Source: Escherichia coli
Lineage (GTDB): Bacteria; Pseudomonadota; Gammaproteobacteria; Enterobacterales; Enterobacteriaceae
Reading direction: 5' to 3' (one strand)
Length of the DNA stretch: 64,000 nucleotides
Assembly: GCF_003334305.1 (NCBI RefSeq)
Contig: NZ_QOWS01000001.1
A program made the position numbers. This document shows, in pieces, positions 61,801 to 63,273 of this stretch. The first letter of the stretch is position 1. Every line of letters starts with the position of its first letter.

Positions 61801-63273
61801 TGAATGCTACCGATGGCGTGACGTTGACAGGTGAGCTTAATACCAACCTTGAAACTGACAGCCTGACCTATCTTGCCGACGTGACGGTTAATGGTGATCT
61901 GACCAATACGTCCGGTGCGGTTAGCCTGCAAAATGGCGTCGCTGGCGATACGCTGACGGTAAACGGTGATTATACCGGCGGCGGTACGCTACTGTTCGAC
62001 AGCGAATTAAACGGCGATGACTCGGTAAGCGATCAATTGGTGATGAACGGTAATACTGCTGGCAACACAACTGTGGTGGTTAACTCCATTACAGGGATTG
62101 GTGAGCCGACATCGACAGGCATTAAAGTGGTTGATTTCGCAGCTGATCCCACGCAGTTTCAAAACAATGCACAGTTCAGTCTGGCTGGCAGTGGCTACGT
62201 CAACATGGGAGCGTATGACTACACGCTAGTGGAAGATAACAACGACTGGTATCTGCGATCGCAAGAAGTAACGCCGCCATCGCCACCTGATCCAGACCCT
62301 GACCCAACACCCGATCCTGACCCAACACCCGATCCAATCCCCGCTTACCAGCCGGTGCTGAATGCCAAAGTTGGCGGTTATCGCAATAATCTGCGGGCGG
62401 CAAATCAGGCGTTTATGATGGAGCGACGCGATCATGCAGGTGGCAATGGTCAGACGCTGAATTTACGTGTTATCGGCGGACGTTATCATTACACGGCGGC
62501 AGGGCAACTGGCTCAGCATGAAGACACTTCTACGGTGCAGCTTAGCGGTGACCTGTTTAGCGGGCGCTGGGGCGATGATGGCGAGTGGATGCTTGGGGCG
62601 GTTGGTGGCTACAGTGATAATCAGGGCGAGAGCCGCTCGAATATGACCGGAACTCGCGCCGATAACCAGAACCACGGTTATGCCGTTGGGCTGACCTCAA
62701 GCTGGTATCAGCACGGTAATCAGAAGCAGGGGGCCTGGCTGGATAGCTGGCTGCAATACGCGTGGTTTAACAATGATGTTTCCGAACAAGACGATGGCAC
62801 AGATCATTACCACTCGTCGGGGATTATCGCCTCGCTGGAAGCCGGGTATCAGTGGTTACCGGGGCGTGGTGTGGTGATTGAACCGCAGGCGCAGGTGATT
62901 TATCAGGGCGTGCAGCAGGATGATTTTACCGCCGCTAACCATGCGCGCGTGTCACAATCGCAGGGGGATGATATTCAGACGCGGCTGGGTTTACACAGCG
63001 AATGGCGTACCGCGGTTGGTGTCACACCAACATTAGATCTGAATTATTATCACGATCCCCATGCGACGGAAATTGAAGAAGATGGCAGCACTATCAGTGA
63101 CGATGCGGTGAAGCGACGGGGTGAAATAAAAGTGGGAGTCACGGGCAATATCAGTCAGCGAGTGTCCCTGCGCGGCAGCGTGGCGTGGCAGAAAGGGAGT
63201 GATGATTTTGCCCAGACGGCAGGGTTTTTGTCGATGACGGTGAAATGGTAATCACTGTCTAGTCGGCACGGTT

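Follow-up and report, generated by a model that had tools for sequence, protein, structure and literature searches.

The exactly duplicated 18-nt sequence in the proline-rich spacer of the autotransporter YfaL is most probably an in-frame minisatellite (a unit of six codons) that would change its copy number by slippage. As such it is an ordinary, slowly evolving, in-frame polymorphism in the spacer of a surface protein and an instance of a well-known kind, and it appears not to have been described in the literature searched. In the window, by which we mean the whole 64,000-nucleotide stretch of Escherichia coli DNA that was analyzed, direct reading of the sequence placed CCTGACCCAACACCCGAT at 62298-62315 (+ strand) and the same bases again, head-to-tail, at 62316-62333 (+ strand), each copy encoding PDPTPD. 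Tandem Repeats Finder reported the array over 62298-62335 with a period of 18, 2.1 copies, and 100% matches. Within yfaL this array is in frame and codes for PDPTPD PDPTPD, which are residues 928 to 939 of the protein. A sequence-only reading of this DNA had proposed an exact 18-bp tandem duplication at 62298-62333 and a (PDPTPD)x2 peptide between the passenger and the translocator; the former was borne out by direct reading and Tandem Repeats Finder, the latter by translation and the positions of the Pfam domains.

The two units are 100% identical, and their 18-nt length is a multiple of 3. When the 64-kb window was scanned for units of 12 to 30 nt repeated exactly in tandem, the yfaL pair was the only hit; random sequence of this length would be expected to contain about 1e-6 such matches of 18 nt (64000 x 4^-18). 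Constraint at the protein level does not explain this identity of the DNA, since the hexapeptide also occurs three times in K-12, where the units differ from one another at 4 to 5 of 18 positions, all of the differences being synonymous.

The gene that carries the repeat (59517-63251, + strand; 1244 aa) is intact and was delimited by the ORF list, translation, RefSeq annotation, and Pfam. RefSeq annotation on identical or near-identical DNA names it 'AIDA-I family autotransporter adhesin YfaL/EhaC' and places the locus between nrdA/ypaB and ubiG/gyrA. The order nrdA-ypaB-yfaL-ubiG-gyrA is shared by K-12 and strain 13KWH46, and in the window yfaL lies between ORFs that match nrdA and ubiG. With 96.2% nucleotide identity across the whole gene and a shared locus, the gene is orthologous to yfaL of K-12. 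In strain 13KWH46 (locus 868-4602) the linker region is identical to that of the window, yet its yfaL is annotated as a pseudogene (internal stop, codon 595), whereas the window copy is intact.

Pfam matches, obtained with YfaL residues 45-1244 as the query and converted to full-length numbering (offset +44), identify YfaL as a type Va autotransporter, with PF03797 at the C terminus and AC_1, Pertactin, PATR, and Chlam_PMP repeats in the passenger. The autochaperone/pertactin-like end of the passenger (61896-62258, + strand) comprises the AC_1 autochaperone (residues 794-904, E=4.6e-18) and the Pertactin domain (residues 811-914, E=2e-8), and the WYLRS motif at residues 911-915 closes the passenger. 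The autotransporter beta-domain occupies 62463-63182 (+ strand; residues 983-1222; Pfam PF03797 E=4e-34). Between these modules lies the proline-rich linker PPSPPDPDPDPTPDPDPTPDPIP (62274-62342, + strand; residues 920-942), a Pro-X dipeptide array that translation and the K-12 and 4MEE alignments delimit as the length-variable segment of the gene. After the proline-rich stretch comes AYQPVLNAKVGGYRNNLRAANQAF..., which leads into the barrel; this linker-to-barrel segment (AYQPVLNAKVGGYRNNLRAANQAFMMERR..., 62343-62462, + strand; residues 943-982) aligns to the AIDA-I region ahead of the barrel in 4MEE and is presumably the pore-spanning alpha-helix, an assignment based on the general architecture of type Va autotransporters.

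The only solved homologue found by sequence is the AIDA-I transport unit (PDB 4MEE, E=9e-29). AIDA-I resembles YfaL in having an autochaperone end motif, WYL[RT]S, followed by a pre-barrel segment and a barrel, but unlike YfaL it is without a Pro-X array. In the 4MEE alignment, AIDA-I shows an 18-residue gap exactly facing YfaL PPSPPDPDPDPTPDPDPT. Because the gap falls exactly opposite the array, the Pro-X array is a spacer inserted between two conserved modules.

Comparison with K-12 MG1655, in which yfaL is 3753 nt long and encodes 1250 aa, revealed a length difference that is confined to this spacer. Across the whole-gene alignment of the window and K-12 there are 18 gap columns in total, every one of them inside the proline-rich linker, where the K-12 peptide is PD(PDPTPD)x3 PEPTPA and that of the window is PDPD(PDPTPD)x2 PIPA. 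The sequence-only reading had given the window protein as 1244 aa and the K-12 protein as 6 aa longer, and both lengths agree. The accompanying proposal that this excess equals one repeat unit held in part: all 18 bases do fall in the linker, and K-12 has three PDPTPD where the window has two, but in the MAFFT alignment the exact pair of the window is preceded by a gap of 12 nt and followed by one of 6 nt. We consequently rejected the idea that K-12 is simply the window allele plus one clean unit, as the 18 nt fall in two parts on either side of that pair and the units of K-12 have diverged from one another. The two alleles thus differ as three units versus two at the peptide level, while at the DNA level they have separate histories. 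Mismatches between the window gene and the K-12 locus (868-4620) were also unevenly distributed, clustering at gene positions 1800-2400 and 2800-3200 with few in the rest of the gene, a distribution suggestive of a mosaic or recombinant history for yfaL.

A 331-nt query centered on the repeat was compared with 5,426 complete E. coli genomes, and 5,383 of them were matched, with one match each. Of these matches, one is on a record that is classified as a plasmid. Region lengths were read for 60 genomes sampled systematically from the 5,383: 37 rows were 349 nt (K-12 and B2 types), 14 were 331 nt (the window type), 6 were 355 nt, 2 were 325 nt, and a single row was 373 nt. All length differences in this sample are multiples of 6 nt, and all lie within the Pro-X array. 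A one-genome-per-species scan with the upstream anchor TGGTATCTGCGATCRCAAGAAG gave a single match, on an E. coli contig of the 355-nt class.

Copy number of the exact unit was assessed with synthetic window sequences that carried one and three units as queries. One copy (a 313-nt region) was present in 22 genomes and three copies in 10. Two copies were present in about 1,200 genomes (465 + 735), a count that rests on the identity bands of at least 95% in the 331-nt query survey, where 14 of 14 sampled rows were 331 nt long. No allele with four copies of the 18-nt unit was found among the 5,383 complete E. coli genomes with yfaL. Fetched sequences confirmed one unit in strains 90-1, 2014C-3011, 2012EL-2448, TW05614, MDP9-27, and HCP6S3_I2, and three units in YZLc4-1, RM11911, and MLI107. 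Since about 1,200 complete genomes have the two-copy allele in common, an assembly artefact can be rejected for it. Among the 22 genomes with one copy, STEC or bovine isolates (O111:H8, O91:H21, DEC9B, and the SMN and OkiPb cattle strains) predominate, a bias that is probably due to clonal descent.

Evidence for change in unit number comes from alleles that are otherwise near-identical, compared over 200 nt on each side outside the linker (400 nt in total). On haplotype A (PPSPP), one copy is found in strain 90-1, two copies in the window, and three copies in YZLc4-1 and RM11911, and the flanks of these 1-, 2-, and 3-copy alleles show 0 to 1 differences in 400 nt. Haplotype B (PPLPP) differs from haplotype A at 8 to 10 of the 400 flanking nucleotides and internally at 0 to 1, and it carries a series of its own, with one copy in 2012EL-2448 and TW05614 (O111:H8), two in RM9322 (O111) and ETEC-2265, and three in MLI107. 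The two O111 strains, TW05614 and RM9322, have identical flanks and one versus two copies. Because the full series of one, two, and three copies recurs on two backgrounds with so few flank differences, it implies repeated gain and loss of the unit, or else very short recombination patches. The sequence-only reading had called for unit counts across many E. coli genomes as a check; the counts gave one, two, and three copies of the exact unit on near-identical flanks and not one fixed number. Its suggestion that slipped-strand variation could change linker length is thereby upheld as far as the copy-number series in natural alleles goes, while slippage itself is read from the pattern.

Homologous recombination offers another account of the length classes, which would then be imported yfaL alleles or short linker patches acquired from other lineages. 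Consistent with this are the mosaic distribution of K-12 mismatches along the gene, the tendency of the major length classes (331, 349, and 355) to follow allele lineages, and the linker of strain BHUCD02. In this strain the flanks are identical to those of the window type, and K-12-like ends (PTPD before, PESTPA after) surround two exact window-type units; such a hybrid linker could represent either a recombinant or an intermediate in evolution. The pattern of shared flanks could also result from short-patch recombination between alleles. However, the near-absence of flank differences among 1-, 2-, and 3-copy alleles on two separate haplotypes argues against it, and recombination would need a donor that differs in unit count alone, a donor that must itself have come from unit gain or loss. 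We therefore consider recombination an unlikely explanation for the length classes.

Gain and loss of units seem not to be restricted to the 18-nt sequence. In the linker homologous to window positions 62274-62342, B2-type alleles have a separate 12-nt unit, GACCCAACCCCC (DPTP), with a 1/2/3 copy series of its own: a single copy in UM146 and the bulk of about 1,600 similar genomes, two copies in 8 or more genomes that fall into two flank variants (e.g., MS1170 and Rb-50), and three copies in strain 1105. The YfaL linker as a whole is a small hotspot at which units are gained and lost in frame. Deletion of GG and TACG from CCGGAATCTACGCCC would, on paper, yield the unusual PIPA end of the window (CCAATCCCC).

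Under the slippage model, the nascent strand would misalign during replication between neighboring units that are identical in DNA, leading to the occasional loss (two to one) or gain (two to three) of a unit, and each such event would shorten or lengthen the spacer by six residues while leaving the reading frame and the flanking domains undisturbed. Short-repeat, RecA-independent recombination would be an alternative route to the same gains and losses. Replication slippage is the simplest mechanism that we infer from the pattern. The data are compatible with either direction of change (1 to 2 or 2 to 1), and some one-copy alleles (CCG GAC...) may have had a single unit throughout their history. 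The Pro-X repeats and the general topology of autotransporters suggest that the spacer would form an extended, polyproline-II-like stalk outside the barrel. A polyproline-II helix rises by 3.1 Å per residue, and one unit would then shift the reach of such a spacer by roughly 2 nm.

The YfaL array resembles a general class of repeats in bacterial surface proteins, in which slippage between short direct repeats during replication produces in-frame length polymorphism: the units are identical and arranged head-to-tail, the unit length is divisible by three, and alleles that are otherwise identical differ in copy number. The copy number in YfaL is very low (1 to 3) and variants are rare, making the array far less mutable than classical contingency loci. 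Since the minor variants amount to about 32 of about 1,230 alleles of the window type, the process would appear to be slow and probably near-neutral, and not a fast contingency switch. A slow rate is what is expected for a two-copy 18-nt repeat, which is a weak slippage substrate.

An on/off switch of YfaL expression by phase variation might also be envisaged for a repeat within a surface protein gene. Strain GPEC60-12-649 has a 7-nt partial unit inside the array that frameshifts yfaL, and RefSeq marks the gene 'frameshifted'; this partial unit may stem from genuine slippage or from faulty assembly. As the unit is six codons long, a whole-unit change does not switch expression, and the 1-, 2-, and 3-copy alleles are all in frame and annotated as intact. 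We therefore rejected a phase-variable contingency locus, for which the chance is close to nil even with the single frameshifted strain taken into account.

The nearest analogue to the YfaL array is region R2 of pertactin in Bordetella pertussis, B. parapertussis, and B. bronchiseptica, which like the YfaL array is an in-frame, proline-rich repeat at the C-terminal end of the passenger. Pertactin has two proline-rich repeat regions, R1 (GGFGP) and R2 (PQP), whose copy number varies among prn alleles and Bordetella species (PMC3966384, PMC8931430). The YfaL array lies directly C-terminal to the Pfam Pertactin/AC_1 match, in a position comparable to that of R2, and it likewise is variable in copy number among isolates. 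In both proteins, changes in repeat number are slow and distinguish the alleles of different isolates (PMC3966384, PMC8931430). The repeat sequences themselves are unrelated, PDPTPD in YfaL versus PQP in R2, and belong to different proteins of different species; in addition, pertactin is cleaved from its barrel. Another relevant comparison is the proline-rich stalk of the Streptococcus mutans P1 adhesin, a polyproline II helix that has been cited as a model for pertactin R2 (PMC8931430). It shares with the YfaL linker a make-up of proline-rich repeats, for which an extended stalk that holds out an adhesive domain has been proposed (PMC8931430). The two differ in that there is no homology between them and that the YfaL linker, a putative stalk, is far shorter.

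The likeness to pertactin also bears on whether diversifying or adaptive selection acts on linker length, be it through antibody escape or through matching of passenger reach to the O-antigen or capsule layer, ideas of a kind already put forward for the repeat regions of pertactin. The segment is surface-exposed and positioned like R2, whose copy number varies among Bordetella alleles and whose role is debated (PMC3966384, PMC8931430); linker length in E. coli spans about 20 residues; and the one-copy alleles come mostly from STEC and bovine isolates. Even for pertactin, the view of R2 as an antibody target with immunity-driven variation is unsettled (PMC8931430). YfaL, unlike pertactin, is no vaccine antigen, and its likeness to R2 lies in position and copy-number variation. 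Furthermore, variants of the exact unit make up less than 3% of window-type alleles, the commonest length classes are stable within lineages, and the STEC enrichment is explicable by clonal descent. It is accordingly improbable to a high degree that selection acts on linker length in this manner, and equally doubtful that gain and loss of PDPTPD/PTPD tunes the projection of the passenger through LPS or capsule, or a surface epitope, such that the 1/2/3 series would be adaptive.

Our literature search found no paper pairing yfaL with 'proline-rich', and papers on yfaL, autotransporters, and linkers dealt with surface display or classification, the repeat not being their subject. The practical significance of the repeat is modest, and it opens no new biological question. 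The linker accounts for most of the variation in YfaL protein length (1238 to 1260 aa in the genomes examined), and this variation should not be taken as a sign of different genes or truncations. The natural series of spacers, which separate the autochaperone motif from the pre-barrel segment by about 19 to 39 residues, could be used to probe how spacer length relates to autotransporter display; YfaL itself serves as a display scaffold. The repeat might also serve as a minor marker for typing, and it is a place where assembly or frameshift errors may occur.

Two further features were observed in the window upstream of yfaL. One is a short tandem repeat, TAAGCGAATG, at 59214-59234 (10 nt x 2.1, 90% matches). 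The other is a 625-aa ORF at 57034-58911 (+ strand), which is antisense to, and wholly overlaps with, the 761-aa ORF at 56536-58821 (- strand) that corresponds to nrdA; the 625-aa ORF is most likely a shadow ORF.
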